DNA of 64,000 nt from Bacteriovoracaceae bacterium (GTDB lineage Bacteria; Bdellovibrionota; Bacteriovoracia; Bacteriovoracales; Bacteriovoracaceae), in contig JBLWTJ010000003.1 in NCBI GenBank assembly GCA_048270185.1, forward strand, positions 224,001 through 288,000, written 5' to 3'. Shown here piece after piece: positions 40,874-55,864 of the stretch (its first letter is position 1; each line of letters starts with the position of its first letter). A model generated the notes under the pieces. The model did no database searches. It was not told the DNA's origin and worked only from the letters and a program-made list of their open reading frames with translations. A program made the position numbers and the translations under genes.

Positions 40874-42154
40874 ATGCAAAAACTCTTGAAATTTCTATTC
40901 TTATTAAATATTTCCCTGCTAAATTCATATGCAGCAAGCCTCGAACTTACAGAGACATCTGATCCTGTTATCAAACTAATGTCTGATAGTACGACTGAGA
41001 TAAATAATCTATTTGTTACTTCATCTGGAGATGCCAGAACTCTTGATGCAGCTCCTAAAATTTATGCACCAATTGGCTTGTCTTCAGGTACTCCATCTTC
41101 AAATTACTTCATTAGTGGCGTGACCCTTCCAAAAGCAACTGGGACATCTGGCGGTATACAGCTTACGGATGTGAGTGTAACTGGAGTAGGAAGTACAGAG
41201 AAGATCTATACTGCTATTTTAAATAATGATGATTCGACACCAACTTATCGTATTATTGGAGAGGTTACGAATCAGATAAATCCGTTTGTACCATATACTG
41301 CTTTATGTTTAACTGACTCAGTTGTATGCGAAGGATTTAGTGACTCAACTGCTTCGATCAAGCCAAATCTTGAGCTTGTTATTTTCGTTGCTTCGTCTGA
41401 TGCTGACTACTCAAATAATGATGATGTTAATGTTGATGATATCCCAGATGCCGTGGGGCAAGCTCTCTTTTTTAAGCTTATAATGAGTTCTTCAACTATA
41501 ATAAGTAGCCAAACACCTTTGATTACAGCAGATTATGATGGTGATTCAATGGGAGTCATTGAATACACTGGTGATTTTGGGTCAAACTCAAAGTATATTT
41601 CTCGTATTGTTTCTTATACTGATACTTCAAGTGGTACATTAAAGGGCGCAAGTCTAAGAGAGGTTAACGAAGGTGTTGGTGAAGAGGGAAGTATTACAGT
41701 TAGAAACCTTGCCAATAATCAAACCTACTTCTCGAGTATCGCTTATGTCGACCACTTTGGTTTCACTTCACAACTAAGTTCTGAAGTAACTCTTACTCCA
41801 AGACCAATTGAGGCCTTATTGGCCGCTAATCAATGCTACTTTGTGACGGCCGGGTTTCAACGCAATCACTATGTCCTAAATTACTTCCGCTATATTAGGG
41901 ATGAATTTCTACTAAAGTCGACAGTCGGAAAGGCATTTGTTGACTTTTATTATAGCAGTGCGCCACAATATGTCGGCTATATTCTAAATAACAAGTCCAT
42001 CGCTCATCGTGTAAAATCATATAGTTTCTCAACTTATTTTGTTTTACAAAATATGGCCTCTATAATAGGATGCATGTTACTACTTGCTGTATTTAACTAT
42101 TTTAGAAGACAAAGAAGAGAGCAATTTTATGCCTTACAAAGTTCTAATTGTTGA
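40874..42154 (+). CDS. Secreted Ser/Thr-rich protein with CFI-box-CTERM domain
   Basis: Signal peptide; CYFVTA...RYIRDEFL...GKAFVDFYYSSAP, then TM and basic tail. Confidence 0.75.
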   Translation: MQKLLKFLFLLNISLLNSYAASLELTETSDPVIKLMSDSTTEINNLFVTSSGDARTLDAAPKIYAPIGLSSGTPSSNYFISGVTLPKATGTSGGIQLTDVSVTGVGSTEKIYTAILNNDDSTPTYRIIGEVTNQINPFVPYTALCLTDSVVCEGFSDSTASIKPNLELVIFVASSDADYSNNDDVNVDDIPDAVGQALFFKLIMSSSTIISSQTPLITADYDGDSMGVIEYTGDFGSNSKYISRIVSYTDTSSGTLKGASLREVNEGVGEEGSITVRNLANNQTYFSSIAYVDHFGFTSQLSSEVTLTPRPIEALLAANQCYFVTAGFQRNHYVLNYFRYIRDEFLLKSTVGKAFVDFYYSSAPQYVGYILNNKSIAHRVKSYSFSTYFVLQNMASIIGCMLLLAVFNYFRRQRREQFYALQSSNC

Positions 42155-42500
42155 TGACGAACCAGATATTCTCGAGCTTTTAGCTGAAGAGCTAGAGTTT
42201 GAAGGATACGAGATTGAATGTGCCTATTCAGGGAATTCAGCTGTTAAGCTCATCGATAACGGTCATACTTTCGACGCTATTATCTCAGATTATAAAATGC
42301 CTGACGGTAATGGGAAGGTTGTGCTCGATTATTCGAATGGCCACAAAGATCAGAAAGAAAAAGTTTTCTACTTTGTTTCTGGCCAGGCCGATATTTCACT
42401 CAAAGAGGCCATGAAAGAGGGTGTTACACGCTTTTTCTATAAGCCATTTGATCTGGATGAATTACTTACTAGTTTAAAGAGCGACCTCGGACAGTCTTAG
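42129..42500 (+). CDS. Single-domain response regulator
   Basis: VLIVDDE, ISDYKMP, KPF; start at MPYK 42129. Confidence 0.92.
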   Translation: MPYKVLIVDDEPDILELLAEELEFEGYEIECAYSGNSAVKLIDNGHTFDAIISDYKMPDGNGKVVLDYSNGHKDQKEKVFYFVSGQADISLKEAMKEGVTRFFYKPFDLDELLTSLKSDLGQS

Positions 42501-43510
42501 TTTAAGACTGTCGAGTGATTGCCACGTACATAGCGATTCTTTCCAACATGATCTTCTTTATTTTCTTCCATTAGAAGATCCCAAAATCCATCCATTTCAT
42601 CATACTTTGCAATTAGCTCATATGTACGCCCAAGACCTTGCCTCGAGAATGCACTTCTTTGGAATTCAACATTAGTTCTAAGACTATCAAACTCACCTCT
42701 AAGAGTTGCAACTGTTTCATCTGTAAGGTCAGCGAACTCTTCTTGCATAAGATCTAAGATACGGTTTGCAAGTCTCTTAGGTCCAAAGTAACTTGAAATA
42801 AATTTAACAAATACTGTCGCATTGATCTTTCTAAGAATAGGGTTGGCCTTATCGTAGAATGCACTCAGGAAGCATTCATCAATCTGCTGGTGTCTAACTT
42901 CATCAAGCATATGATAGTAGTGACATTGCCAGAAGTTCCAGTCCACATCATTCTTCTTTAGGGCCTTATTATATTTTTTCGAAATATCCAGGGTTCTTTC
43001 TTCAAAGAAGAGAGCAATCCAAATCCACCATAGAAAGATCTGTGGAAACATTGTTACGATCTTCATAATGATATTTTGAGTACGAGTTAATTTAAAAATT
43101 CTTAGTGGATTCTCTTTTGAATAATTATGCGGCTCGGCCTTCATTAACATTCTTAAGAAGATCTCACCGTGTTTGTCCTCTTCTTCCATAAAGTGATCAA
43201 TGGCCTCTGCCATTTGATCATTTAATTTATAGATTCGCTTACAGCTTCTTAGAGCTGGATTTAGAAGTACATTTTCAAACCAAATAAATTGCTCACAAAT
43301 TGATAGACCAATTAATTGGTTGAAGCGAAGTTTTTGAGCATCAGTTAAGAGGTCATAGCTTGGAAGATAAGAGAGAGTAATCATCTCATCTGGAGTCCAT
43401 TTTAAGCTATGATCAATAGGCTTAGTCCAATCTAGGGCCTCAACAGTGAAGGCGCGATCAATAGATTGCTTATTTAGCCTTTCTAATTTTTCAACTAGTC
43501 TTGTTTCCAT
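42497..43510 (-). CDS. AurF-like ferritin-fold diiron oxygenase
   Basis: FE..., EEEDKH, FFEE, HMLDEVRH carboxylate/His ligand pattern. Confidence 0.8.
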   Translation of the reverse strand: METRLVEKLERLNKQSIDRAFTVEALDWTKPIDHSLKWTPDEMITLSYLPSYDLLTDAQKLRFNQLIGLSICEQFIWFENVLLNPALRSCKRIYKLNDQMAEAIDHFMEEEDKHGEIFLRMLMKAEPHNYSKENPLRIFKLTRTQNIIMKIVTMFPQIFLWWIWIALFFEERTLDISKKYNKALKKNDVDWNFWQCHYYHMLDEVRHQQIDECFLSAFYDKANPILRKINATVFVKFISSYFGPKRLANRILDLMQEEFADLTDETVATLRGEFDSLRTNVEFQRSAFSRQGLGRTYELIAKYDEMDGFWDLLMEENKEDHVGKNRYVRGNHSTVLN

Positions 43511-43758
43511 ATTGCCCTCAATTCTTCTTTATGATTATTTTCTAGGTAATTAATTAAGTCCTGTGTTGTCTGACACTGGAGGAAGATCGTAACAGGTAGC
43601 TCATCAAAGTCTTCCTTAAGCCTTGCAATGAACGACATAGCGTCATATGAGTCAAGGCCAAGTGTTGCAAACTTTGTCTCAAGATTGAGTTCGATATTCT
43701 TTTCTTCAGCAACTTCTGCAATCGCTTCATTTAAATATTTTAGAACCTCTTGAGTCAT
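43495..43758 (-). CDS. Acyl carrier protein
   Basis: 87 aa, acidic, LGLDSYD phosphopantetheine Ser. Confidence 0.9.
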   Translation of the reverse strand: MTQEVLKYLNEAIAEVAEEKNIELNLETKFATLGLDSYDAMSFIARLKEDFDELPVTIFLQCQTTQDLINYLENNHKEELRAIWKQD

Positions 43759-43772
43759 ATTTAATTCCCGCT

Positions 43773-45389
43773 TTATCTACCTATATTTTCTCTTAATAAG
43801 AAATTGAATTTAAATTTATTTTTAATAAAAGATGCTTTTAGGAGTTCAAATCGATAACGATTCTCTCTCGAAGTTAGCTCGCCACTTAAGAAGCGCTTCT
43901 TAGCATCCTGTCTCTTTACTTTACCACTTGTTGTCTTCTTCAGGGTAAGCTCTGGAAGAATTACTATGTGGTGTTTAGAAATAGACACTTTTTTGCTCAC
44001 GACCTCAGCGATTTGAGACTTGATTTTATCTCGACAAGTAGCTGATTTTTCGTTGATTTCTGCCACAATATAGGCCGTCTCACTCTTTTCATCACTAACA
44101 GAGAAGGCAACGACACGTCCGAGCTTAACTTCAGGAACTTGGGCCGCTAAGAACTCAATATCATTGGCAAAGATATTGACTCCATTACAGATGATGAGAT
44201 CCTTACTTCTTCCTGTTACATAGAGGTTATTGTCTTTAAGAAAACCTAGATCTCCCGTATTAAGCCAGCCGTCTTCTAAGTGAGACTCACGTCCGTAGTA
44301 GTGAGTTGAAATCGATGGTCCTTTGATATAGATTTCACCTATACCATTGTCACTATTTCTAATCTCAATCTGAGTTGGAGCAAGTACCTTTCCACATGAG
44401 ATATATTCTTCACCATCACGATTTGTTGACTCATACTTTGTTTCAACTTCGTGAAAAGTAACAGCAAGAGTTGCTTCAGCAAGCCCGTATACTGGCATAA
44501 TTGCATTGGCATTAAAGCCATACTTTGCAAATCTCTTAGAAAATGCATCAAGGACATTTCTCTTAATGGGCTCAGCTCCGCATTGAGCAAAGCGGATATG
44601 ACTTAAGTCTAATCCTTCAAGCTTACTTTCTGGAATCTTTGTCGCACACACATAGTAGGCCGAGTTTGGAATACAAAGTGCAGAGCACTTTGTTTCAGAC
44701 ACAAGCTTAAGCCACTTATGAGGGGCGAGCATATAGTCTTGAGTTCGAACAATATGACATGGAAGATTCTTTAAAAGAGCAGTCAGTAAACTTCCTATCA
44801 GTCCCATATCATGGTGTAGGGGAAGCCACGTGCAGATTGAATCGTTCTCATTGAGTTTTATTCCAGTATTGATTTGTTCATTATTTGCTAAGAGATTTCT
44901 TTGGCTGACTACGACACCTTTAGGGGCAGAAGTTGATCCAGATGAAAATTGAATAAAGCAAGTATCGTCTAATGTTGGGTTATAGAAGCTAGTGTCCAAT
45001 GGTGAATTTTCTAATTGCGCTATATTTGTAAAATTAGCAGGTGTAGACTTTGAGGCGATATACTTAGTTTTTGCACTTGTAGCAAATTGCATAAGTAGTG
45101 TTTCAAAATCATCTTTTAGCATAAGAGCGTTGGATGCCATTGGAACTGGTGTATTCTTAGAAAGAAGAATACCAAAGAAATATGTCACAAAACTTTCTTC
45201 GTTTTCAAATGAGAGAATAATATTCTCATTCTCAATTGCTTGTGCCTTAATATTTGAAGCAATTTGCTTTGCCTTGAGCATCAGTTCATCAATTGATAGT
45301 GAACTTACTAGCTTAAAGTTCTTGTAAAAGAATAGAACTTCTTTGTCTTTATTTGTGTTGCTATTAAGTAGTTCTAGAATATTATTCAT
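43773..45389 (-). CDS. Fatty acyl-AMP ligase (FAAL)
   Basis: QFSSGSTSAPKG, WLPLHHDMGLIG, YGLAEATL, TGDLG, GRSKDLII, KTTSGK. Confidence 0.9.
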   Translation of the reverse strand: MNNILELLNSNTNKDKEVLFFYKNFKLVSSLSIDELMLKAKQIASNIKAQAIENENIILSFENEESFVTYFFGILLSKNTPVPMASNALMLKDDFETLLMQFATSAKTKYIASKSTPANFTNIAQLENSPLDTSFYNPTLDDTCFIQFSSGSTSAPKGVVVSQRNLLANNEQINTGIKLNENDSICTWLPLHHDMGLIGSLLTALLKNLPCHIVRTQDYMLAPHKWLKLVSETKCSALCIPNSAYYVCATKIPESKLEGLDLSHIRFAQCGAEPIKRNVLDAFSKRFAKYGFNANAIMPVYGLAEATLAVTFHEVETKYESTNRDGEEYISCGKVLAPTQIEIRNSDNGIGEIYIKGPSISTHYYGRESHLEDGWLNTGDLGFLKDNNLYVTGRSKDLIICNGVNIFANDIEFLAAQVPEVKLGRVVAFSVSDEKSETAYIVAEINEKSATCRDKIKSQIAEVVSKKVSISKHHIVILPELTLKKTTSGKVKRQDAKKRFLSGELTSRENRYRFELLKASFIKNKFKFNFLLRENIGR

Positions 45390-47739
45390 TCAGAGCTCCT
45401 TCGAGGTAGCTTATAATCTCCATCGTACGATTAAAAACAACAGGCATGAATTCATATTCAGAAACACTGTGTCCCACATAGTAGAAGAGCACTCGATTTA
45501 ATAAATATTCATTTGCACAGGCAAGCATATTAGTTAGCTTCTCCTTGCGCGCTAGTTCTAATGAATCTTGAGCAAGATAATAATCAATATCGGCTTCAAT
45601 CTCAGTTACAGGTGTTGTAAAACTCATAAACTCAACAAGGTCGCGATATGGAGAGTTATATCTCGATAACTCCCAATCATAGAAACATGGACGGCCATTC
45701 TTAAAGCAGATATTTCTTGGATTAAAATCATTATGAGTCAGAGTTTTTGGGCCCTGATCGATAATTTTCATCCACGAGGAGCTTTCTTTAACTATTGATT
45801 CAAGCTTAGCTTCCGTCTCTTTACTGATATAATTTTGCGCTCTGATATAAGTAATAATCGAATCACATAGGTCGGTATCAATACTTGTCTTACCTGTATT
45901 TAGAGAAGATTCTCTAATTAAATCACTCTCGCTAAAATGAGTGTGAACTTTTGAGATGGCATTATAAATGAGCTCTCTAGTGGACTTCGTCCAGAGATCA
46001 AGTTGGCCTTGAGTATTCATTAGCTCAATTTGAGTGTCATTTAAGTTCTCTAAAAGTAGTAAATAAGCTTCTTTTTGCGTGTTGATATACGTTCCATGTA
46101 GTTTTGGAAGATATCTTTCAAATTCTTGAGATACGAATTCATATGCTTCAATTTCTCGAATATGACATTTTGTAAACTCGTTATCTGATTTTGTCTTTAA
46201 GAACTTGCGTCTAATATCACTGTCGGCAAAACCAGCAATGGCCGCAAGACCTGCGATAACGTCACTATCCATAGGCTTTGATTTAAGGATGATTTTGTCC
46301 TTACCATCTACTGTAAGGGCCGTAAAACCAAGGGCCTTGTTAACAACACGTGATGTGGCCTCTGTAATGATTCCGTTTTCAATATTAATTTTTACATCAT
46401 GTTCAATACTTTCAGCATTCTTAATAATATCACTTTGAACCTTAAAGTTTTCAGTGATGAATTCCTTTGTAATATCTTTTGTCTTAATTTGATCTTTTGG
46501 ATTATTGCGTCCTAGTTTGTCGTGAGCGTAAGCAAATTGGCCTCCACAGATGGCCGACATTGTTGAAAGCTCAAGAGAGAGGGCAGCACCAGCAATGATT
46601 TTGGCAAGTCTTTCAACTTTTCCAGCACCAGAGCATCCAATTGATTGAAGACAGTTCTTATAATGTCCAAGCCCTGTTCCACCACCAACTGTTCCAATAA
46701 CAAGAGAAGGTAGTGTTAAGCTTACATAGAGTCCTTTTTCATGTTTCTCAAAGTTTAAAACGGCCGTCGAAGACTCGTGAATACAAGCAAGGTCTTGCCC
46801 TGTTGAAGCAAAGATTGCAGCAACAGCGTTTGCAACGTTTACGTTATATCCTGTCATTCCCTCTAGGCGAGTGATAGGAAGTGACCTTAAGTATAGATTA
46901 ATAAGATCTGTTGAAGTTGTTTTTAGAACTCTTTGTAGAACTTTTTCTGTGATAACACATTCTGCTGTGACATATGTACCACGTGTTTGCATTGCTGAAC
47001 CAACTGAAACTTTTTTATCGCTTGATCCATTTCCTTCTAAGAAGAATTCAATCATCTTAATCTTAGAAGTTAGCATTTCTTCTTTAATCCAAAGACATGC
47101 CTGCCAAGTACAAACAGTTGTCATATTTTGACCAGAAGCATCCCCTGACTCATAAATGAATTTTGCGTGTACGTTACGTCCAATAAGAACGGGTTTAATT
47201 TTTATAAGATTTGCAAAGTTTGAATATTTCTTAGTGATACTTTTAATTGTATTAAAATTTTCTTCCAGCCAATTAATAAAATCATCAGCGTGATCGATAT
47301 TTTCAAATGTAAATACTGGTGCGCGATACATGCGCTTTCTTGTTACACGAGAGCGAAAACCACCACAAAGTGAAATAGCAAAAGCACCACGAGTAATTGA
47401 AGAAACAAGAGCTCCTTCAGAAGTTGCAATAGGAATATAAATATCTTCTTTTTCTTGATCTTTACCAATCATCTTAAGTGGCCCACAAATACCAAGTGGA
47501 ATTGAGACGCTCCCAGCATAGGACTCAATATTTCCCTTTAGATTAAAACCATCAAGATCAGTGTTGATTAAAGACTCAAGACTTTCTCCGCATTGTTCTT
47601 CAAGAATTGAAATACGCTTAAGGCGTGCGGCCTCAGAATAGTCAAAACGCGAAGGAGCCGATGCCTTTCTTGTCGGTTGTTCATTTGGGATTGTCACCTG
47701 TGAGGAAGCACTATTTGTTGCTGAGATTTCTATTTTCAT
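45382..47739 (-). CDS. Class I HMG-CoA reductase-like domain fused to an APH/choline-kinase-like phosphotransferase
   Basis: PIATSEGALV, GDASGQNM, GNGSSDKK, TGQDLA, GTVGGGT, AHDKLGR; C-terminal THNDFNPRN and YDWE. Confidence 0.85.
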   Translation of the reverse strand: MKIEISATNSASSQVTIPNEQPTRKASAPSRFDYSEAARLKRISILEEQCGESLESLINTDLDGFNLKGNIESYAGSVSIPLGICGPLKMIGKDQEKEDIYIPIATSEGALVSSITRGAFAISLCGGFRSRVTRKRMYRAPVFTFENIDHADDFINWLEENFNTIKSITKKYSNFANLIKIKPVLIGRNVHAKFIYESGDASGQNMTTVCTWQACLWIKEEMLTSKIKMIEFFLEGNGSSDKKVSVGSAMQTRGTYVTAECVITEKVLQRVLKTTSTDLINLYLRSLPITRLEGMTGYNVNVANAVAAIFASTGQDLACIHESSTAVLNFEKHEKGLYVSLTLPSLVIGTVGGGTGLGHYKNCLQSIGCSGAGKVERLAKIIAGAALSLELSTMSAICGGQFAYAHDKLGRNNPKDQIKTKDITKEFITENFKVQSDIIKNAESIEHDVKINIENGIITEATSRVVNKALGFTALTVDGKDKIILKSKPMDSDVIAGLAAIAGFADSDIRRKFLKTKSDNEFTKCHIREIEAYEFVSQEFERYLPKLHGTYINTQKEAYLLLLENLNDTQIELMNTQGQLDLWTKSTRELIYNAISKVHTHFSESDLIRESSLNTGKTSIDTDLCDSIITYIRAQNYISKETEAKLESIVKESSSWMKIIDQGPKTLTHNDFNPRNICFKNGRPCFYDWELSRYNSPYRDLVEFMSFTTPVTEIEADIDYYLAQDSLELARKEKLTNMLACANEYLLNRVLFYYVGHSVSEYEFMPVVFNRTMEIISYLEGALNE

Positions 47740-47843: not shown

Positions 47844-48770
47844 TTATAGGCTGAATAACGTGTACCTTCGATCTCTTTGTGAAATATCCTTGGCAAAGAG
47901 TGAAGGAAGATTTCCATCTCTCATAAGACACAGGTAGGCCTGCTCATACTTGTCTCTAATGGCCGGGATAATAGACTTTAGTAAATAGATAAAGGTTAGT
48001 CCCATATGGCGATGATCTGGGTGAACTCCCATGGTCTTAATAAGTAGTCGTTTGGCGCTTGGATCTGTGACGTCAATGAAGTTTAAGATGATCCCAATGA
48101 TCTCGTTAGATCCTTTTTCAATAAGACAACACGATGTATGCGGGCAGATAATGGCCGCCATTTGTCGCCCATATTTTTGTTTGAAGGTATCAAGTGTGAC
48201 ACTTGAGTAGGCGAGATTATCACCAAAGACTTCTTCGGCACTTGCATAGAATTTATCAATATTTGAAAGCCAGTAATCGGCATCAATCATTTGAAGTTCA
48301 TAAGCAGATTCAATTGTATTTTGGTCAATACCATCAAATTGTTCGGACCACTTAAGAAGTTTTTCAAAATCATTAATTTCATAAGTTAGATATTTTTCAA
48401 ATACTTCACCATGTTGACTTAAAAAATTATAGAAGTTCATGTCACAAGGAGGCTCCATCAGATAAGTCGGCCTATAATCTTCATCACAAAGACGGTAAGT
48501 GTTATATGTTGAAAAATTTAGGGGACCAACAATCTTTTCACACTTATTCTTTGTCTTGTAGGCAATGGCAGCTTCCTTGAAAGCGTCAAATTCGATCTGT
48601 GTGAAGTTACCATGACAAAAACCAAAATAAGCACAGTCTGCTATTTTAAAGAAAATCGAATGACTACTTCCAGAAGTAAATTGTTCGATATTTAATAATT
48701 CCGGTCCATTCTTAAATAGTTCATATTCAATCTGTTGTTCTGGTGAAAGTAATTCGATATTAATTGACAT
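47844..48770 (-). CDS. GNAT-fold protein (YghO-like two-domain)
   Basis: VGPLNFST; C-terminal KTMGVHPDHRHMGL acyl-CoA loop. Confidence 0.65.
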   Translation of the reverse strand: MSINIELLSPEQQIEYELFKNGPELLNIEQFTSGSSHSIFFKIADCAYFGFCHGNFTQIEFDAFKEAAIAYKTKNKCEKIVGPLNFSTYNTYRLCDEDYRPTYLMEPPCDMNFYNFLSQHGEVFEKYLTYEINDFEKLLKWSEQFDGIDQNTIESAYELQMIDADYWLSNIDKFYASAEEVFGDNLAYSSVTLDTFKQKYGRQMAAIICPHTSCCLIEKGSNEIIGIILNFIDVTDPSAKRLLIKTMGVHPDHRHMGLTFIYLLKSIIPAIRDKYEQAYLCLMRDGNLPSLFAKDISQRDRRYTLFSL

Positions 48771-49695
48771 AAATACCTACAATAATTGCAATATAGAGTA
48801 GAAGGGCATAGAGGCCAAAACTTGCTTCATTTTTCTTGCGACCTTTTAGACTTGGTTCTTTGACAAATTTTACAAGAGTAATCTGAGCAAAGACAAATCC
48901 AATTGTTGCCATAGCTATTGTTATGACCTTGTAATTTGGCATAATCGTTGTAAAGAAAAGAAAGCAACCAAGAGTGATAATATTCATAAGAGAGATAATC
49001 ATCACTGTTCCATTAATACCGTAAATCTTTGTGTACGAATCAAGTGTTTCAGTTTCTTCTTCTGGCCCACGACATTTTCTTGTGAACTCATAAGAGAAAC
49101 CGGAAGCAAGACTCATGGCCAGTACAATATAAGTATAGAGTTCAAATTGTGGCATATTCCACTTTGACGACATAATCCAAATAATTATAAGAGGTGAGAC
49201 GAGCATATGAGAAAAAGAGTAGAGTGTTAGTCTCTTCTCAAGCCAACTACCAATAAAGAACTCTTTGGCCATAAGGGTCGACCAAAGATAGACAATACCG
49301 TAACAAATAAGTGTTAGATAATTATTTTCAATAAGAAGACTAAAAGCGATGGCGATAGCTGTAAATAGCACCGCAATGGTATCGAGGTGAGCAAGTTTAA
49401 TTAATCCCCTTTGAAGGGCCCTTTTAGGGTGATTAATGCAATCGATCTCATAATCTTTGTGCTCATCAAAAACTCTAAGTATAAAATAGTGGCCAACAAC
49501 AGCTAGTGCCCCAAGAATATCAAGTAATTTAAACTCTAAATTTTGATCAGTAAGATAGAGTGCAACTCGGCTCATGACAATATAAGTAATAATTCCTGAA
49601 ATAACATTGGCCATTGGAAATCGCTCTTGTGACCAAGCAAAGTATCTCTTATAAAATGGATCTTCTATCGTTATATGACTTATATCCTTACTCAT
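48760..49695 (-). CDS. UbiA-superfamily prenyltransferase
   Basis: Multi-TM; RVFDEHKDYEIDCINHPKRALQRG; second acidic motif YEFTRK..GPEEE...DSY. Confidence 0.8.
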   Translation of the reverse strand: MSKDISHITIEDPFYKRYFAWSQERFPMANVISGIITYIVMSRVALYLTDQNLEFKLLDILGALAVVGHYFILRVFDEHKDYEIDCINHPKRALQRGLIKLAHLDTIAVLFTAIAIAFSLLIENNYLTLICYGIVYLWSTLMAKEFFIGSWLEKRLTLYSFSHMLVSPLIIIWIMSSKWNMPQFELYTYIVLAMSLASGFSYEFTRKCRGPEEETETLDSYTKIYGINGTVMIISLMNIITLGCFLFFTTIMPNYKVITIAMATIGFVFAQITLVKFVKEPSLKGRKKNEASFGLYALLLYIAIIVGIYVN

Positions 49696-49764
49696 GTATA
49701 AGGCCCCCTTAAAGTATTTATTTCCTTGATTACATTATATAATGAAAACAACTATAATTGGGAT

Positions 49765-50799
49765 ATGGCAAAATATTTTACTGAAAAACTAAATTACTCC
49801 CTTGCAAACGAGGATATCTCTTTTGAGGCAAATCTTTGTAAAAAGTTAAACCCTAAGACAATAGGCTCAATCTGTGGTGCTGGGCCACGTGGCCTATACT
49901 TAGCGACAAATGATTCAAGTCTCGACTTATTTGATGTTTCAGGACTTCAGGTAGAATGGGCAAGAGCTTATGAAAAGGCGATTACAGGACTTGATGAAGT
50001 AAGCTTTTTAAGGGCATATCATGATGATTCTGCAATATTAAAAAGTATTGATGTGAATCATGGGCTAAATCAGATCATTGATGAAAATGAATTAGCTGCT
50101 CTTGCGGGAAGTTGGGAGAAAACATTTATCAAATTTTCCAAAATTGCGTCAAAGATACTAGGGAAGAAGCTAATCAATGCATTCAAGCATTGTAAGACGA
50201 TGGAAGATCAAGACTTAATCTTGAATTCAACATCCTTTAAGATTCGTTGGACTGTCGTTTTATCTATAGTTGGAAATAAGGCCCTAATGAATTCACTTCT
50301 TTATCGTGGTGACTTCATTAAGAAGAATATTCCAGAGAGTTATGTGCGCTTTTATCGAAAACGTTTTGCTCACTTATTCTCACTATCGCTTGTAAAGGAT
50401 AATTTCTTCTTAAGTCTTTGTCTTTTTGGTGAAGTATCTTTAACAAATACACCTCTTCGTTATCGTGATTTTGAAGAACTTAAGAATGCCGTAACAACTT
50501 CAAATATTAAGTATCATATTGGAGATGTTGTTACGAAGCTTAAAGAAGGTAGTCAACAATATGAGTACTTTTCTTACTCCGATGTACCAAGCTACTTTGA
50601 TGACGAATTAGGAAGGAACTTTGTTCAAATGGCCAAACCTTCCATAAAAATTGGCGGAATCATTTGTGTTCGTTACTATCTAAGAATTCATAAACCAGAT
50701 CTTAATGGCTTTGAAGAAGTTACTTCTGAATACGCGGATGAGATTGGAAGAGAGAGAGTTGGTGTCTATGACATCAGATTATATAAGCGAGTAGCCTAG
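49765..50799 (+). CDS. DUF3419/BtaA-like SAM-dependent transferase
   Basis: LNYSLANED, ICGAG..L, GSWE..F, SDVPSY; ATG 49765 preferred over TTG 49726. Confidence 0.7.
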   Translation: MAKYFTEKLNYSLANEDISFEANLCKKLNPKTIGSICGAGPRGLYLATNDSSLDLFDVSGLQVEWARAYEKAITGLDEVSFLRAYHDDSAILKSIDVNHGLNQIIDENELAALAGSWEKTFIKFSKIASKILGKKLINAFKHCKTMEDQDLILNSTSFKIRWTVVLSIVGNKALMNSLLYRGDFIKKNIPESYVRFYRKRFAHLFSLSLVKDNFFLSLCLFGEVSLTNTPLRYRDFEELKNAVTTSNIKYHIGDVVTKLKEGSQQYEYFSYSDVPSYFDDELGRNFVQMAKPSIKIGGIICVRYYLRIHKPDLNGFEEVTSEYADEIGRERVGVYDIRLYKRVA

Positions 50800-50800
50800 G

Positions 50801-53461
50801 CTACTCGACTTTTATAATTCCTTTATCACAATCCATTTCAATCATTTGACCATTCTCTAATACTTTCGTGATATTTGGAACACCAACAATTGTTGGGATC
50901 TTTAATTCTCGGGCGATGACGGCCGAGTGAGAAAGAGTAGAACCTTTTTCTACGAGAAGCCCTTTTATTGAAGGAAATAGCGGTGCCCAACCTGGATCAG
51001 TTCTTACCGTACAAAGAATTTTGTCATTAACATCAATACCTTCGTCTGGTTTAAAGAGAAGGGCAACTTCACCTTTAATATGACCAGGGTAGCAACCAAT
51101 ACCTTTAAGTGCACCATCTGGGTCAAACTCAGTATTGCCATCATATTCAAAGCTATTGGCCACGTGAACGAAACCATGAGTTGTAAAGTGGTGTCCAGGC
51201 TCATTCATTTCATATGACTGATACTCTTCTTTTCTTAACTCAATTAAAGCCTTAAGATTTCTTTGAACAATACGCCCATCTTTAAACTCTTCAAGTTCAT
51301 TTAAAGTTAAGTAATAAATATCTTCTGGAGCATTAATTATCTCAAAAGCAGCAAGTTGTTTTCCCATTTCACTATAGATCTGTCTTGAGATACCAAATGA
51401 CTTTGTTCTTAGAAGGCGAGTGTTTTCACGGTATCGAATGGCCTTTCTAAGTTTTGACAGATCTTTATAAAATTTAGAACGACTAAAAATTGAAAGCCTT
51501 TCTTTAACGATAGGAGCTATCTTGGCCTCTTCAGAATCTCGAAGTTCCATTTCATTGGCGATAAATCCTTCGTAATTTAAATCTTCTTTTTGAACGTAAT
51601 TCTTTAAGATATTTATGAGAAAGCTAGGATCTTCTCTAAGAGATAAACTCTCAAGCTTAAGCTCTCCAATGGTACGATCACCATAGTTTTCAATATATTC
51701 AAGACACATATTATAGACTCGAATATTATTGATATAGAGATAATCTAGAACTTTATGATTTTCCATATTAAGAAATGTCTTAATACTTTCAGCATCCCAC
51801 TTCTTTATTTGATCACTAATTTTTAAGAGTTCTTTTGTCGGTTGAGTACTGGCAATATCGTGTTCACCTGATAGTAGATTTCCAAGAGTGATATCAGGGT
51901 TTTCAACCTTTAGCTTATCCATCCAGCGATACATCTTCCCATTCATCATCATAACGTAGAAGTCATTGATGAGGGGAGCATGCCACTTATCTGTAATTTT
52001 CTTATCTAGTTCTTCCGTTAACTCAAAAAGCTCTGTTAGGCTTAGACGATTAAGTTTTGAATAGTCGATGGTATGATAGACTTTATAGAAATCGGTCATG
52101 AAATTTTCAACAACTTTATCGATTTTTGAGAAATACCACAGAAGACTTCCAAAACATCGAATCATATTTGGGAGCATGGCCAGTTTTTCTCTAAAGCTTA
52201 GTTGCTTGTCTTCGATAAAGTCGACTGGGTCAGTAATCCCCATCATTTTTTCCATATCTTCTTTTGATTGATTAAAAGAAGGAAGAAGCAGAAGTCCCTT
52301 ATACCAAGATTGAATATTATAAAATACACGGCCTTCAATTAGGGCAATCATATTTTTATGGCGTTTCTCATGTTTCTTTAGCTCTTCTTCACTCAGTCCT
52401 GAAAGTCCAAGTAGTTGGTGATAGACTTTGTAGTACATCTTTGAAGCGTATGAAAATGTAAGAGGTGTCGTGACGCCATTAAAAGACTCTTGAATATTTG
52501 AGTTATCAAAAACATTCTCAAATTTCGATCTCTTATCTTTAGGAAGGGAAGTGATATCTCTTGTTTGCACAATATAGATTTCTCCCTCTCTAATACAGAA
52601 CTCAATATCTTGTGGCTTCTTCTTTATTGTTAGGATATTTAAAGCAAGCTCTCTTAGTTCTCTAATTTCAGAGTCCGTTAAAACATGAGATAATTTCTGT
52701 GATTCTTCAATATTCACTTTCTTTGTCGTTTTTAAGTCGTAGTCGGCGATAATTTTGAAGTCTTTTTCTCGAATTTCGTATTTAATTTCCTCATTATCAT
52801 CGATGGTGTACTCATCTGTATTACATTCACCACTAACAACTCCTTCTCCTTGACCAAAGTTAGCTGAAAGAAGCATTTGATCGCGGCGTCCATTAATTGG
52901 GTTTGCTGTGAACATAACACCTGATTTCTCTGGATCAATCATTTCTTGAATAATGACGGCCATCTTTGGTGTTGTTTGGTGAATTCCATTCTTAAAGCGA
53001 TATGTAAGTGCGGTTAAGGAGAAGTTACTCTTAAAGCAATCTTTAATGGCCTTTGCAATCTTATCTTCCCCTTGAACATAGAGAAATGATTCAAGTTGCC
53101 CTGCAAATGAGAAGTGAGCACCATCTTCATCGGCAGCGGAGCTTCGTACAGCATAGTGCATATCTCTTTCTAGATGAGTAGCTACTTTATCGATGATATC
53201 AATTTCACAAAGGTCAATTTGATCATGAATATTTTTTATGAGCTCTTTTAGTCCATCAATGGATTCAAGATTTGTGTACTCTTCAATAAGAGCATTTAAC
53301 CTGTCATTTTTGTCCACTATCGTTTGAAAGTAGTCACTCGTGATACAAAACCAGTCCGGAGTTGAAACCTTACACTTTTCAAGTTTAGCAAGATTATAGG
53401 CCTTGCCCCCAACTTGCGACTTGTGTGCAAGTAATGATTCAAATTTGTTTAAAAGATACAT
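50801..53461 (-). CDS. PEP-utilising ATP-grasp/His-swivel enzyme (RPH/PigC-type domain order)
   Basis: VGGKA, AVRSSAADED..FSFAGQ, SGVMFT, DIEF, QTRDIT; C-terminal TDPGW and LSHSAVIARE. Confidence 0.9.
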   Translation of the reverse strand: MYLLNKFESLLAHKSQVGGKAYNLAKLEKCKVSTPDWFCITSDYFQTIVDKNDRLNALIEEYTNLESIDGLKELIKNIHDQIDLCEIDIIDKVATHLERDMHYAVRSSAADEDGAHFSFAGQLESFLYVQGEDKIAKAIKDCFKSNFSLTALTYRFKNGIHQTTPKMAVIIQEMIDPEKSGVMFTANPINGRRDQMLLSANFGQGEGVVSGECNTDEYTIDDNEEIKYEIREKDFKIIADYDLKTTKKVNIEESQKLSHVLTDSEIRELRELALNILTIKKKPQDIEFCIREGEIYIVQTRDITSLPKDKRSKFENVFDNSNIQESFNGVTTPLTFSYASKMYYKVYHQLLGLSGLSEEELKKHEKRHKNMIALIEGRVFYNIQSWYKGLLLLPSFNQSKEDMEKMMGITDPVDFIEDKQLSFREKLAMLPNMIRCFGSLLWYFSKIDKVVENFMTDFYKVYHTIDYSKLNRLSLTELFELTEELDKKITDKWHAPLINDFYVMMMNGKMYRWMDKLKVENPDITLGNLLSGEHDIASTQPTKELLKISDQIKKWDAESIKTFLNMENHKVLDYLYINNIRVYNMCLEYIENYGDRTIGELKLESLSLREDPSFLINILKNYVQKEDLNYEGFIANEMELRDSEEAKIAPIVKERLSIFSRSKFYKDLSKLRKAIRYRENTRLLRTKSFGISRQIYSEMGKQLAAFEIINAPEDIYYLTLNELEEFKDGRIVQRNLKALIELRKEEYQSYEMNEPGHHFTTHGFVHVANSFEYDGNTEFDPDGALKGIGCYPGHIKGEVALLFKPDEGIDVNDKILCTVRTDPGWAPLFPSIKGLLVEKGSTLSHSAVIARELKIPTIVGVPNITKVLENGQMIEMDCDKGIIKVE

Positions 53462-53504: not shown

Positions 53505-55070
53505 ATGAGAAAAATTGAAGATATAAGGAAAACTCTGGGTTATTTGGACAATCAAGAAACACCAATAAATGGTTGCCACTACCTCGATGCTCACTTTAGA
53601 AATCAACTTAATAAGCGCTGTCTTGTTTACGAAGATCAAGATCAAAACTTTGGTGACTTCATGGCCGAGGTCGGTGCCTGGATAAATACTTTAACCGATC
53701 AGGGAATTGGGCGAGGGGATCGAGTGATTATTCTTCTTCCATTAAGGTTAGAGCTCTATCAATTAATGTGTGCCTTGTTCTATATTGGTGCTGTTGTCGT
53801 CTCTGTTGACTCCACAATGCCAAAGGATAAGCTAAAACTTGCAATTGAAGATGCAAAGGCCAGTGCCATCTTCTCTGTTTCGGCCCTTCTAAAATGGACT
53901 CCTCTTTTGCCGTCCCTTTGGAAGTTAAAGCGCTATACATTTGAAGAGTCATGCTTCTTTGCAAAAGACCTAGCTATACTTCGTGCTGATAATACACTTG
54001 ATTTTAAACAAGTTGATATTGGTGAGAATGGCCCGGTTCTTATTTCTTTTACTTCTGGCTCAACTGGAAGGCCAAAAGCCGCCAATCGAAGTCTTGAAAT
54101 CTTTCTTGCACAAAAAATTGTTTCTGAATTTTTCTGGCTTCACAGTGAAGATGAGATTGATATGCCATTTTTTCCAACTCTTGTTTTACAAAATCTTGGT
54201 CTTGGGATTACGACAATCTTCCCTGATTTAGACTTTAGAAAGATTAGAGATTTTGACCCATCAAGAGTTATAAAGCAGATGAATGATTATGGTGTCACTC
54301 GTTTTAGTGCAACCCCTATGATCATTAAAAAACTTGCAAAGTACATTGCTGTAAAAGGGATATCAATTCCTACTCTTCGCTCTGTTATTATTGGTGGTGC
54401 AGAGATCACAACACAGGCCGCTACGACTGTTCTTGCTGCCTTGAAGCTAGCTAACCCAAATGTTGAAGTACATATTATCTACGGTTCAACAGAAGTTGAG
54501 CCTATAAGCTTTACTCCTATTGAGGATTATATTGAAAATCAAAGTATTGGTTTGAAACTGGGAAAAGTTATTGACGTCTTAGATATTAAAATAAATCCAG
54601 TTACTGATATTTTTGATTTCAATGAAGGACTAGAGTGGGGCGAGATCTGTTTAAGTGGCCCTCATGTAATTAAAGAATATATTGATAATCATCCGGCCAA
54701 TAAGACAACTAAGATTAGAGATGAAGATGGACATCTGTGGCATTTAACTGGTGATGTTGGTTATGTAAAGGATGGTCTAGTCTATCTTCTTGGACGTCTA
54801 AAAGACTGTCTTATTATCGATGGGTTAAAGTATCCGACCTTTCACTTTGAAAATGCTTTGGCCAAAATTGAGGGAGTGCAAAGAGCTGCCCTAATTCAAA
54901 AAGATAGTCGAGTAATTTGCTATATCGAGGGGGCGCAGACTTCGAGAGAAGTTGTTAAGAGTTATCTTGATAATTATTTTAGAAATTGTTTTGAAATTAT
55001 TTATCGTGAGATCCCAGTTGACTCAAGACATTTCTCTCGAGTCAACCGTAATGAATTAAGAAGTTATTAA
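53505..55070 (+). CDS. AMP-binding adenylating enzyme (OleC-like)
   Basis: FTSGSTGRPK, YGSTEVEP, WHLTGDVG, GR. Confidence 0.85.
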   Translation: MRKIEDIRKTLGYLDNQETPINGCHYLDAHFRNQLNKRCLVYEDQDQNFGDFMAEVGAWINTLTDQGIGRGDRVIILLPLRLELYQLMCALFYIGAVVVSVDSTMPKDKLKLAIEDAKASAIFSVSALLKWTPLLPSLWKLKRYTFEESCFFAKDLAILRADNTLDFKQVDIGENGPVLISFTSGSTGRPKAANRSLEIFLAQKIVSEFFWLHSEDEIDMPFFPTLVLQNLGLGITTIFPDLDFRKIRDFDPSRVIKQMNDYGVTRFSATPMIIKKLAKYIAVKGISIPTLRSVIIGGAEITTQAATTVLAALKLANPNVEVHIIYGSTEVEPISFTPIEDYIENQSIGLKLGKVIDVLDIKINPVTDIFDFNEGLEWGEICLSGPHVIKEYIDNHPANKTTKIRDEDGHLWHLTGDVGYVKDGLVYLLGRLKDCLIIDGLKYPTFHFENALAKIEGVQRAALIQKDSRVICYIEGAQTSREVVKSYLDNYFRNCFEIIYREIPVDSRHFSRVNRNELRSY

Positions 55071-55864
55071 TTTGTCGGCATGAGACAAAGCTTCTTAATT
55101 TTCTTTGTAAGCTTAGACGGCAGTGTTGATCTAATCATGGCCCAGAAGCTTAGTCTGTGTCCGTAACAAGATTGCCACTCTGGAGTGTACATCATACCCT
55201 CATCTTCTAAGTCTTTTTCGTCTAAATAGTCTTGAAGGTGAAGATCAAGAAGTCTCTCAGAATCAGACTTATGAAGAAGTCTTGATTGATAAAGTGAGTC
55301 TGCGATTTCAAACGGTGTAATAAAGCTTTTTTGACCGCTGTAGAGCTTATTATCAGCATTGAAGTTATAAGCTGCACGAATGAAAATATAGAATTTAATT
55401 CCAGGGTATTCCTCACTTACATCATGATAGAAAGTATGGTCATGTTCTCCATTATCACCAACAAGGATAACTTGATCTGGTTTTTCTCGTTCAATGAGCT
55501 CGCGAAGTTTTTGTGCCTTAAATACTTTTGTTGAAACTTTAATTGGCCTAATGAGTAGATTTTCTTGTTGAGGAAAATCTCCTGCATACAGAAGAGTTGA
55601 ATGAGACCACTTCATGACTTCGGCCGGAGCATTTGTTAGATAGTAAATATCCGCATCAAGTCTGCGCTCAATAATCTTATAAAGATCGGCCATCCCTAGA
55701 AAGATATTTGTCACTCGGTAAGCATTCTTTACTGCAGCGATTTTATTGCGAACATGGGCAACCTTAACCGTATCATCAATATCTGAGACGAGGATGGTCT
55801 TTGCTGCATGGGCGCTAAGGTTTAATGTCAGGAGAATTATCAGTATTATTTTTAAATTTTTCAT
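55067..55864 (-). CDS. App1-like phosphatidate phosphatase (HAD fold), exported
   Basis: Signal peptide (AHA); VSDIDDTVK, LVGDNGEHD. Confidence 0.8.
   Translation of the reverse strand: MKNLKIILIILLTLNLSAHAAKTILVSDIDDTVKVAHVRNKIAAVKNAYRVTNIFLGMADLYKIIERRLDADIYYLTNAPAEVMKWSHSTLLYAGDFPQQENLLIRPIKVSTKVFKAQKLRELIEREKPDQVILVGDNGEHDHTFYHDVSEEYPGIKFYIFIRAAYNFNADNKLYSGQKSFITPFEIADSLYQSRLLHKSDSERLLDLHLQDYLDEKDLEDEGMMYTPEWQSCYGHRLSFWAMIRSTLPSKLTKKIKKLCLMPTN

Follow-up and report, generated by a model that had tools for sequence, protein, structure and literature searches.

Few enzymes have been studied as thoroughly as 3-hydroxy-3-methylglutaryl-CoA (HMG-CoA) reductase (HMGR), whose fold is considered specific to mevalonate synthesis. 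In adenylation-carrier-reductase enzymes such as carboxylic acid reductases, fatty acyl reductases and the myxobacterial ElbD, the reductase is a “male sterility” domain (NAD_binding_4), and we know of no precedent for the HMGR fold as a terminal thioester reductase. In ACAD10/ACAD11 a kinase phosphorylates the 4-hydroxyl of 4-hydroxyacyl-CoA, setting up elimination. Here we analyzed a stretch of 64,000 nucleotides from a Bacteriovoracaceae bacterium (assembly GCA_048270185.1, contig JBLWTJ010000003.1, positions 224,001 to 288,000; hereafter the window) which contains a gene joining an HMGR-fold reductase domain to a kinase domain of the choline-kinase/aminoglycoside phosphotransferase (APH) fold. 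Judged from sequence and gene context, this fusion is probably a two-step enzyme that would convert an acyl thioester to a primary alcohol and then to the alcohol phosphate, feeding a lipid pathway and not the mevalonate pathway.

The fusion gene is a single open reading frame (ORF; Table 1). Pfam assigns the N-terminal part to HMG-CoA_red with 344.6 bits, and matches the C-terminal part with APH (residues 662–712, 36.0 bits against a cut-off of 23.2) and EcKL (residues 524–724, 33.6 bits against 22). A previous reading of this DNA, made from the sequence only (the sequence-only reading), had noted that the class I catalytic Glu, Lys, Asp and His appear intact, that the DAMGMN motif is altered to DASGQN and that about 370 further amino acids carry HxDxxxxN and DWE. 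All of this was recovered in the translation: TSEG (E108), DASGQN (residues 200–205), DKK (D241-K242-K243), GQD (D316) and AHDK (H406) in the reductase part, HNDFNPRN (669–676) and DWE (688–690) in the kinase part. These motifs are invariant in 116 of 116 fused homologues with the exception of S202, which is Ser in 107 and Ala in 9. The gene was also said to overlap the start of the neighboring fatty acyl-AMP ligase (FAAL)-like gene, and we found an overlap of 8 nt with the stop of the fusion (ATGAATAA). The AlphaFold2 model of the full-length protein (pLDDT 86.8, pTM 0.60) is of low confidence at approximately residues 401–420, around the domain junction.

Residues were compared with HMGR in what we take to be the human numbering, which is consistent with a published passage; positions were mapped via profile alignments to the solved human, Arabidopsis and Methanothermococcus HMGRs. 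The equivalents of Glu559, Lys691, Asp767 and His866 are E108, K242, D316 and H406, and those of Arg590, Asp690, Lys692 and Asn755 are R139, D241, K243 and N304; all eight are invariant in the 116 fused homologues. According to a passage of PMC9500038, Lys735 forms a salt bridge to the HMG carboxylate and Ser684 makes a polar contact. This part of the pocket is altered in the fusion (E235, R285, N301, T393 and DASGQN). At the Ser684 position the fused homologues have Glu (67) or Asp (49), at the Lys735 position His (51), Gln (25), Lys (10), Arg (9), Asn (8) or others, so that Lys or Arg are found in just 19 of 116. The His752 position is Asn and the Leu853 position Thr in all 116, and DAMGMN reads DASGQN in 107 and DAAGQN in 9. 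For comparison, 16 of 16 fungal class I sequences have Ser, Lys, His, Leu and DAMGMN, and the human, Arabidopsis and Methanothermococcus chains keep the same four residues. With TIGR00533, the NCBIfam equivalog of NADPH-dependent HMGR, the fusion scores 288.8 bits, below the cut-off of 441.8. Catalytic chemistry is thus predicted to be kept, whereas the part of the pocket that recognizes the HMG carboxylate is replaced. Since these contacts are replaced, HMG-CoA is presumably not the substrate.

The altered pocket is not restricted to fused proteins. We found 846 proteins of at most 430 aa matching the reductase domain, some of which may be fragments. Among the 120 best unfused matches of 390–430 aa, 118 have DA[S/A]GQN and 119 have Glu or Asp at the Ser684 position; as a caveat on the inference that HMG-CoA is not the substrate, one unfused DAMGMN sequence also has Glu at the Ser684 position. 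We computed a FastTree phylogeny with the two DAMG[M/T]N sequences as root, covering 113 fused domains along with 118 unfused ones. In it, 70 unfused sequences form a “His/Ile” clade (support 0.99), apart from an “Asn/Thr” clade comprising all fused forms and 46 unfused ones.

The sequence-only reading had found no other mevalonate gene in the window, and had proposed a search of the genome for a second HMGR and a mevalonate kinase. Matches to GHMP kinases and a second HMGR lie on contigs C1 and C2, the window being on C3; no GHMP_kinases_N match of the genome falls on the window contig. The second HMGR-family gene is of class II (TIGR00532, 297 bits against a cut-off of 260), and its operon on another contig includes a type-2 isopentenyl diphosphate isomerase-like gene, a GYDIA-family GHMP kinase (365 bits against 225), a diphosphomevalonate decarboxylase (174.0 bits against 171.35) and a mevalonate-kinase-like gene (79.7 bits, below cut-off). 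Dxr was not found in this genome. The notion that the fusion acts only as the housekeeping HMGR, raised at the time as a way in which the idea could fail, is contradicted by this separate class II enzyme. We further tested eleven carrier genomes, the window's own and ten others, for genes of the mevalonate and methylerythritol phosphate pathways. In eight of them (Hahella, Marinobacteraceae, an alphaproteobacterial metagenome-assembled genome (MAG), Crocinitomicaceae, Pelobium, Chitinophagaceae, Chitinophagales and Prolixibacteraceae) Dxr is present and no diphosphomevalonate decarboxylase exceeds the cut-off; seven of the eight have no HMGR-family match other than the fusion. Two Flavobacteriaceae carriers have a separate HMGR and a decarboxylase match, one over the cut-off and the other just under; the Polaribacter carrier has a separate HMGR of the class II type. 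A search for the C-domain of HMG-CoA synthase (PF08540) found nothing in 5 of 5 genomes, those with a mevalonate pathway included, and is therefore uninformative. Because the window's genome has its own class II operon, 8 of 11 carriers have Dxr without the decarboxylase and the residues contacting the HMG carboxylate are replaced, we conclude that the fusion is not the housekeeping HMGR and very probably not part of the mevalonate pathway.

Two observations were made in passing on these genomes. The match to Dxr in the Prolixibacteraceae MAG (G050:C22:109103-110227) is split into three parts and contains one in-frame TGA, which might reflect a frameshift, faulty assembly or a pseudogene. In Polaribacter (G003) the class II HMGR adjoining a GHMP kinase is a 577-aa ORF (L083:3814-5547), extending about 150 aa beyond the reductase domain.

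For the kinase domain an AlphaFold2 model was obtained with pLDDT 94.4 and pTM 0.92. Searching with this model, Foldseek returned 307 PDB matches at E ≤ 0.001, of which the top listed are choline kinases and APHs. The neighbors include the choline kinases 1nw1, 3zm9 and LicA 4r77 as well as APH(2'')-Ia and APH(9), at E-values of about 1e-7, TM-scores of 0.44–0.51 and 10–14% identity. The residues K488, E529, H669, D671, N676, D688 and E690 are invariant in 62 of 62 kinase-domain sequences and in 116 of 116 full-length ones; K488 and E529 were placed on strand 3 and helix C by inference from the secondary structure of the model. In Pfam and NCBIfam the kinase part matched just APH, EcKL and CotS-type families and not the GHMP family, and some fused homologues match Pfam Choline_kinase. 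The domain is apparently an active, divergent member of the choline-kinase/APH fold.

We then considered longer proteins carrying the same kinase. A kinase-domain profile found 414 proteins at E ≤ 1e-30 among 1.84 billion representatives; from 150 listed of these, 32 proteins of unusual length were scanned with Pfam. HMG-CoA_red was present in 17 (many N-terminally truncated) and NAD_binding_4 in 3, the remaining 12 having the kinase only or no further domain. Protein P0332 (1454 aa) combines AMP-binding, PP-binding (E 4e-11), HMG-CoA_red and kinase in one chain. The same four domains make up P0397 (1498 aa), which came from a search for longer homologues, and both carry the altered pocket signature. 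In P0316 (1486 aa), AMP-binding and a weak PP-binding match (E 0.004) are followed by NAD_binding_4 (E 3e-56) and then by the same kinase subfamily. The 90% cluster of this protein comprises 8 members, found on contigs as long as 7.3 Mb; four of them are full-length (1486 aa), and their contigs reach 1.37 Mb. P0343 and P0360 have the same NAD_binding_4 reductase-kinase junction. One kinase subfamily thus ends chains of two unrelated predicted thioester reductases. Because it stands behind both in chains that activate, tether and reduce, the HMGR-like domain would reduce a carrier-bound acyl group and the kinase would act on the resulting alcohol. The multidomain chains are the strongest evidence for this putative order of reactions. 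In the window the FAAL and acyl carrier protein (ACP) genes adjoin and the FAAL gene is translationally coupled to the fusion, an arrangement of which two natural one-chain versions exist. The sequence-only reading had inferred a reduce-then-phosphorylate enzyme, and the comparative evidence, that is, the catalytic residues kept in both domains and the fusion chains, supports it.

In P0027, a P-loop (thymidylate-kinase-like) domain precedes the HMGR-like and kinase domains; it is 43% identical to a free-standing neighbor gene of the fusion elsewhere (L031:13433-14230). P0027, P0245 and P0252 are homologues of about 1035–1045 aa, the three-domain form being demonstrated for P0027 alone.

The fusion is widespread. 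In a database of 5.8 billion clustered proteins it has 1049 matches among 7999 candidates scored, and 119 of the 120 best matches contain both Pfam domains. Most of these 120 are 755–812 aa long and seven are longer (926–1043 aa). The nearest ones, named Halobacteriovorax or Bacteriovorax, are 78–85% identical and the remainder about 40%; source names of fused proteins are “phosphotransferase” or “hydroxymethylglutaryl-CoA reductase (NADPH)”. In a reference set with one genome per species relatives are encoded at 360 places. Of these we kept 80 loci, which by record title belong to Bacteroidota (55), Pseudomonadota (12), Bdellovibrionota/Oligoflexia-type bacteria (5), Spirochaetota (3), Myxococcota (2) and Acidobacteriota (1), with 2 unclassified. 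Complete chromosomes are among the carriers (e.g. L060 and L071), and the complete gene is also contained in single contigs from metagenomes (X3 record 11, 8210 nt; the sample may be the window's own source). An assembly error, which the sequence-only reading had named as a possible refutation of its idea, or a gene-calling artefact has next to no probability: this is refuted by the single open frame, the domain pairs in the best matches and the complete chromosomes, and the spanning contigs also speak against it. Of the 12 other species of the genus, 5 carry the fusion; searches of 12 further genera of the family and of 16 additional genomes of the phylum did not find it. This patchy distribution indicates an accessory gene. 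Forms of about 930 aa (L060:9620-12448, P0059; Hahella, Marinobacteraceae, Oleiphilaceae and Desulfobacterales) share an N-terminal extension of about 150 aa before the HMGR-like domain.

In the window, the genes for a UbiA-like protein, a GNAT-like protein, the fusion, the FAAL-like protein, the ACP and an AurF-like protein follow each other in this order on the minus strand, with overlaps or short gaps; the DUF3419 gene and an ATP dikinase gene stand upstream of this operon (Table 1).

Table 1. Features of the fusion gene and its surroundings (positions within the window)
Feature	Position	Strand	Size and assignment
AurF-like di-iron oxygenase or desaturase-type protein	42497..43510	-	337 aa; PF11583 E 6.2e-14; last operon gene
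Acyl carrier protein	43495..43758	-	87 aa; Pfam PP-binding E 1.1e-12
FAAL-like adenylating enzyme	43773..45389	-	538 aa; Pfam AMP-binding E 1.3e-44
Whole fusion gene	45382..47739	-	785 aa plus stop, single open frame
Kinase domain, choline-kinase/APH fold	45385..46503	-	residues about 413–785; Pfam APH/EcKL
HMGR-fold reductase domain	46507..47619	-	residues 41–411; Pfam PF00368 E 8.9e-103; best solved relative 6hr7
GNAT-like acyltransferase	47844..48770	-	308 aa; directly upstream of fusion; Acetyltransf_1 weak, E 0.01
UbiA-superfamily membrane transferase	48760..49695	-	311 aa; first operon gene
DUF3419 protein	49726..50799	+	357 aa; PF11899 E 6.4e-14; copy in L085 (see text) E 2.7e-60
PEP-synthase/rifampin-phosphotransferase-like ATP dikinase	50801..53461	-	886 aa; Pfam PPDK_N plus PEP-utilizers
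Second AMP-binding ligase	53505..55070	+	weak similarity to olefin beta-lactone synthetase
Protein with APP1-type phosphatidate phosphatase domain	55067..55864	-	
Protein near the operon	40874..42154	+	426 aa; no Pfam match; NCBIfam CFI-box-CTERM just passed, 40.7 bits vs 40

The FAAL-like protein matches NCBIfam NF006624 (fatty acyl-AMP ligase) with 369.5 bits, below the cut-off of 600, and shares 29% identity (E 7e-63) with the adenylation region of P0332, the four-domain chain described above. For the AurF-like protein no significant solved relative was found. The GNAT-like protein has a protein-atlas lead of 0.97 to GNAT clusters. The UbiA-like protein matches NF004617 “prenyltransferase” (E 2.7e-29, 102 bits, cut-off 239) and Pfam UbiA (23.7 bits), in both cases below cut-off, and has no significant solved relative (best 6m31, E 0.16); its homologue in cluster 8 (L069) passes NF004617 with 276 bits. 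We take DUF3419 to be the Pfam family of BtaA. The best solved relatives of the dikinase, 5fbs and 5hv1 (E 2e-81), presumably represent the Listeria rifampin phosphotransferase and are well ahead of the PEP (phosphoenolpyruvate) synthases 8a8e (E 2e-50) and 2ols (E 6e-35). The same 5 of the 12 other genomes of the genus have the fusion with the GNAT-like gene and the dikinase orthologue (78–80% identity) beside it; the remaining seven, of which four are less than 90% complete, lack orthologues of the GNAT-like gene and the dikinase. The cluster is thus inherited as a unit within the genus. Between positions 42000 and 54000 promoter-like (34 versus 37.2 expected) and terminator-like sites (11 versus 7.2 expected) are at chance level.

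The DUF3419 gene, the second AMP-binding ligase and the APP1-type gene flank the operon and may belong to the same lipid locus; the latter two recur beside the fusion only in close Halobacteriovorax relatives. In an RNA library (X6) the fusion gene is hit by five small contigs and the AurF-like gene by two. This is only a hint, since such libraries can contain DNA and contigs give no expression level; stretches of the region that lack contigs carry no meaning.

To describe the gene context across phyla, we predicted ORFs in the window and the 80 loci and grouped them into clusters with BLASTP; the fusion ORF is complete in 75 loci, and 41 extend for 8 kb or more to either side. Partner families are named by the Pfam/NCBIfam result of one representative per cluster. 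The most frequent neighbor is the dikinase (31 of the 41 full-flank loci), followed by a CarS-like 171-aa membrane protein (19), UbiA-like proteins (19, in two clusters, one of them an atlas lead only), FAAL/AMP-binding proteins (15), the fatty-acid-desaturase family (14), CDP-alcohol phosphatidyltransferase (12), S-adenosylmethionine methyltransferase (11), PlsC-like acyltransferase (10), GNAT-like proteins (8), P-loop (thymidylate-kinase-like) kinases (6), NTP_transf_5 (6) and the MMPL transporter (5). At least one of dikinase, CarS-like protein, UbiA-like protein, CDP-alcohol transferase and P-loop kinase/nucleotidyltransferase is present in 38 of the 41. As a set, these partners are lipid-type genes. 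Directly downstream and co-directional with the fusion we found the CarS-like gene in 32 of 75 loci, the dikinase in 9 and the FAAL in 4; immediately upstream lies a PlsC-like gene in 12 loci and a UbiA-like one in 6. Several loci contain a minimal set of fusion, CarS-like gene and CDP-alcohol transferase. In Bacteroidota operons a 246-aa membrane protein without Pfam match (L034:9849-10589; cluster 5, 18 loci) may be a divergent UbiA-type transferase, as suggested by atlas features (0.91) and structure (TM 0.53–0.66), which is a lead only.

An alphaproteobacterial MAG that also has the fusion contains a second operon (L085, G005:C1:1167000-1186999) with the order HAD hydrolase, dikinase, DUF3419, membrane protein, GNAT-like, AMP-binding, unfused “His/Ile” HMGR-like and UbiA-like gene. 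This is the same gene set as in the window, and the two GNAT-like proteins are homologous (E 5e-15). No kinase of the fused type is present in the L085 operon. A 367-aa ORF after its UbiA-like gene was considered as a split-off kinase and rejected, since it is unrelated to the kinase (hhalign probability 0.08).

Starting from what is observed directly, namely the domain architecture, the catalytic conservation, the changed pocket, the independence from mevalonate genes and the conserved partners and fusions, we propose the following pathway. The FAAL would adenylate an acid and load it on the ACP, where the AurF-like enzyme may modify the tethered acyl group. With NAD(P)H as reductant and its conserved catalytic Glu, Lys, Asp and His, the HMGR-fold domain would carry out the four-electron reduction of this non-HMG acyl thioester to a primary alcohol, which the kinase domain would phosphorylate with ATP. 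In this organism the substrate is most likely a fatty or other carboxylic acid activated by the adjoining FAAL and loaded on the adjoining ACP; in operons without FAAL and ACP it is probably an acyl-CoA or acyl-ACP from general metabolism. Since FAAL-type adenylation domains and the parallel chains with a fatty-acyl-reductase-type domain point this way, we favor a lipid tail. Judging from the neighbors only, the alcohol phosphate would serve to build an unusual membrane lipid. In other bacteria the CarS-like enzyme encoded directly downstream, sometimes followed by a CDP-alcohol phosphatidyltransferase, suggests CDP activation and attachment of a head group. Here and in Pseudomonadota the partners are UbiA-like, GNAT-like and DUF3419 proteins and the dikinase, which might add a second phosphate; where dikinase, P-loop kinase and UbiA-like genes are present, the route could run via a second phosphorylation and a UbiA-type transfer. 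A tentative extension, less likely than not, is that glycerol-free alkyl-phospho lipids are made from carboxylic acids by carrier-bound HMGR-fold reduction, phosphorylation to alkyl phosphates and CarS-like CDP activation, or that the dikinase or a P-loop kinase makes alkyl diphosphates which UbiA-like enzymes transfer, a bacterial ether-lipid route whose donors would correspond to the prenyl diphosphates of archaea.

Several findings weigh against the reduction of a carrier-bound, probably fatty, acyl group. The polar contacts to the thioester and 3-hydroxyl end of HMG (R139, D241, K242, K243 and N304) are invariant in the 116 fused homologues, so the substrate could be small and polar instead of long-chain. 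The nearest solved relatives of the kinase act on small amino alcohols or aminoglycosides, at TM-scores of only 0.44–0.51. Most Bacteroidota operons lack FAAL or ACP beside the fusion, and the HMGR-like four-domain chains are two proteins, each from one metagenomic contig of 11–13 kb. In addition, a CarS-like gene was not found in the window's genome (best E 0.055), which makes the downstream route least clear in the very genome studied here.

The kept polar residues, the invariant acid at the Ser684 position and the choline-kinase-like fold therefore sustain a rival in which the same chemistry acts on a small polar 3-hydroxy or amino acyl thioester, giving a glycerol-3-phosphate-like backbone or a head-group precursor. 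FAAL and ACP would provide the acyl donor with which PlsC- or GNAT-like enzymes acylate this product; its CDP activation would fall to the CarS-like enzyme and the coupling to a head group to the CDP-alcohol transferase. R139, D241, K243 and N304, the Choline_kinase matches of some homologues, the acyltransferase directly upstream (PlsC-like in 12 of 75 loci, GNAT-like here), the adjoining GNAT-like and FAAL genes in Pseudomonadota and the minimal set of fusion, CarS-like and CDP-alcohol transferase genes all fit this. We nevertheless consider it unlikely, if well worth keeping in mind: in the FAAL-ACP-HMGR-like-kinase chains the reductase directly follows the carrier, which implies that the acid loaded by the FAAL is the one reduced, the parallel chains use a fatty-acyl-reductase-type domain, and CarS-type enzymes act on lipid phosphates. 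The substrate might otherwise be a short branched or 2-enoyl acid, for example isovalerate-derived 3-methylcrotonyl-ACP, giving an allylic alcohol phosphate and, via dikinase or P-loop kinase, a diphosphate as alkyl donor for the UbiA-like enzyme. UbiA-type enzymes in general take allylic diphosphates, a di-iron AurF-like enzyme stands behind FAAL and ACP in the operon, and extra kinases (dikinase, P-loop) recur with the fusion, one being fused to it; yet UbiA-like genes occur in just 19 of 41 full-flank loci, one of the two groups being an atlas lead only, and we regard this variant as quite improbable.

The two alternatives offered by the sequence-only reading fared differently: a repurposed acyl-ACP/CoA reductase is favored, whereas a non-GHMP mevalonate kinase is disfavored by the genome's own mevalonate operon, the Dxr carriers and the changed carboxylate contacts. 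A genuine HMGR fused to a mevalonate 5-kinase might give the UbiA-like enzyme of the operon a private isoprenoid supply. The strong class I similarity (E 1e-103; TM 0.86 to 6hr7), the intact catalytic tetrad and the equivalents of R590, D690, K692 and N755 would agree with it, and a P-loop nucleoside-monophosphate-kinase-like domain fused in front in some homologues could mimic phosphomevalonate kinase. Against this, the carboxylate contacts are changed in every member and TIGR00533 stays below cut-off, 8 of 11 carriers have Dxr and no decarboxylase, the window's genome has a complete mevalonate operon elsewhere, neither polyprenyl synthase nor HMG-CoA synthase is among the named recurrent neighbors, and FAAL-ACP fusions make no sense for HMG-CoA, which leaves this reading very little probability. 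Just as improbable is that the domains do not act in sequence, the kinase phosphorylating a hydroxyacyl thioester before reduction or being regulatory. A passage of PMC12440821 describes ACAD10/ACAD11 as carrying kinase domains fused to an acyl-CoA enzyme in 4-hydroxy-acid catabolism, and our profile weakly matches the ACAD11 chain 8v3v (E 0.0011). However, the kinase is always C-terminal to a reductase of either fold and ends the adenylation-carrier-reductase chains, which is the order expected if it receives a released alcohol. Reduction of the activated acyl group followed by phosphorylation of the alcohol thus remains the reading we prefer.

In open-access papers and preprints we found none on the fusion, its operon, an HMGR-like thioester reductase with a kinase or a biosynthetic fatty-alcohol kinase. 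The only related mention is a passage of PMC12419801 on ordinary HMGR plus GHMP-kinase neighborhoods. The folds themselves are known; undescribed are the altered pocket, the proposed terminal thioester reduction by an HMGR fold, the kinase dedicated to it and the operon. A large scattered clade of at least 1049 fused and 846 unfused proteins, ranging over Bacteroidota, Bdellovibrionota-type predators, Pseudomonadota, Myxococcota, Spirochaetota and Acidobacteriota, appears to have switched substrate; we propose that its members work with an adenylating enzyme and a carrier protein and that most have gained a dedicated kinase. If this is true, annotation pipelines mislabel these genes as mevalonate-pathway HMGR, biocatalysis gains a new type of terminal thioester reductase leading from acid to alcohol phosphate in one protein, and a conserved lipid operon becomes directly testable.

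Compared with class I HMGR, the fusion keeps the fold (Foldseek against 6HR7 of Methanothermococcus thermolithotrophicus: E 5e-30, TM 0.86 by target, 36% identity; TM 0.83–0.86 by target for 6hr7 and human 1dqa), the catalytic Glu/Lys/Asp/His, the GTVGGGT motif and the R590/D690/K692/N755 equivalents. It differs in its changed pocket, the equivalog score below cut-off, the missing link to mevalonate genes, the fused kinase and, in two proteins, the position of the HMGR-like domain behind adenylation and carrier domains. With choline/ethanolamine kinases and APHs (1NW1, LicA 4R77, APH(2'')-Ia 5IQC, APH(9) 3I1A) the fusion kinase shares the bilobal fold, the HxDxxxxN loop, the Mg-binding Asp of D-W-E and the Lys/Glu pair; unlike them, at 10–14% identity and TM 0.44–0.51, it is nearly always joined to a thioester reductase. 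ACAD10/ACAD11 likewise combine a kinase of the same superfamily with an enzyme of acyl-thioester metabolism, as a passage of PMC12440821 describes, and match weakly (8v3v), whereas the fusion kinase most likely phosphorylates the reduced C1 alcohol.

The neighbors parallel the CDP-alcohol (Kennedy-type) and the archaeal CarS and digeranylgeranylglyceryl phosphate (DGGGP) synthase pathways, with kinase, cytidylyl transfer and CDP-alcohol phosphatidyltransfer in succession and UbiA-family transferases in addition. In contrast to the archaeal pathways, the similarity to CarS is low (Pfam E 1e-4; NCBIfam 36.5 bits, cut-off 148), the UbiA-like gene of the window matches DGGGP synthase at just E 0.16, and no gene for glycerol-1-phosphate or geranylgeranylglyceryl phosphate synthase is among the named recurrent neighbors. 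With the adenylation-carrier-reductase enzymes the system would share the logic of activating, tethering and reducing, and P0316 is such a chain with the kinase subfamily of the fusion at its end. Unlike in these enzymes, the reductase of the window has the HMGR fold and not that of a short-chain dehydrogenase/reductase, the modules are encoded by separate genes, and a kinase has been added.

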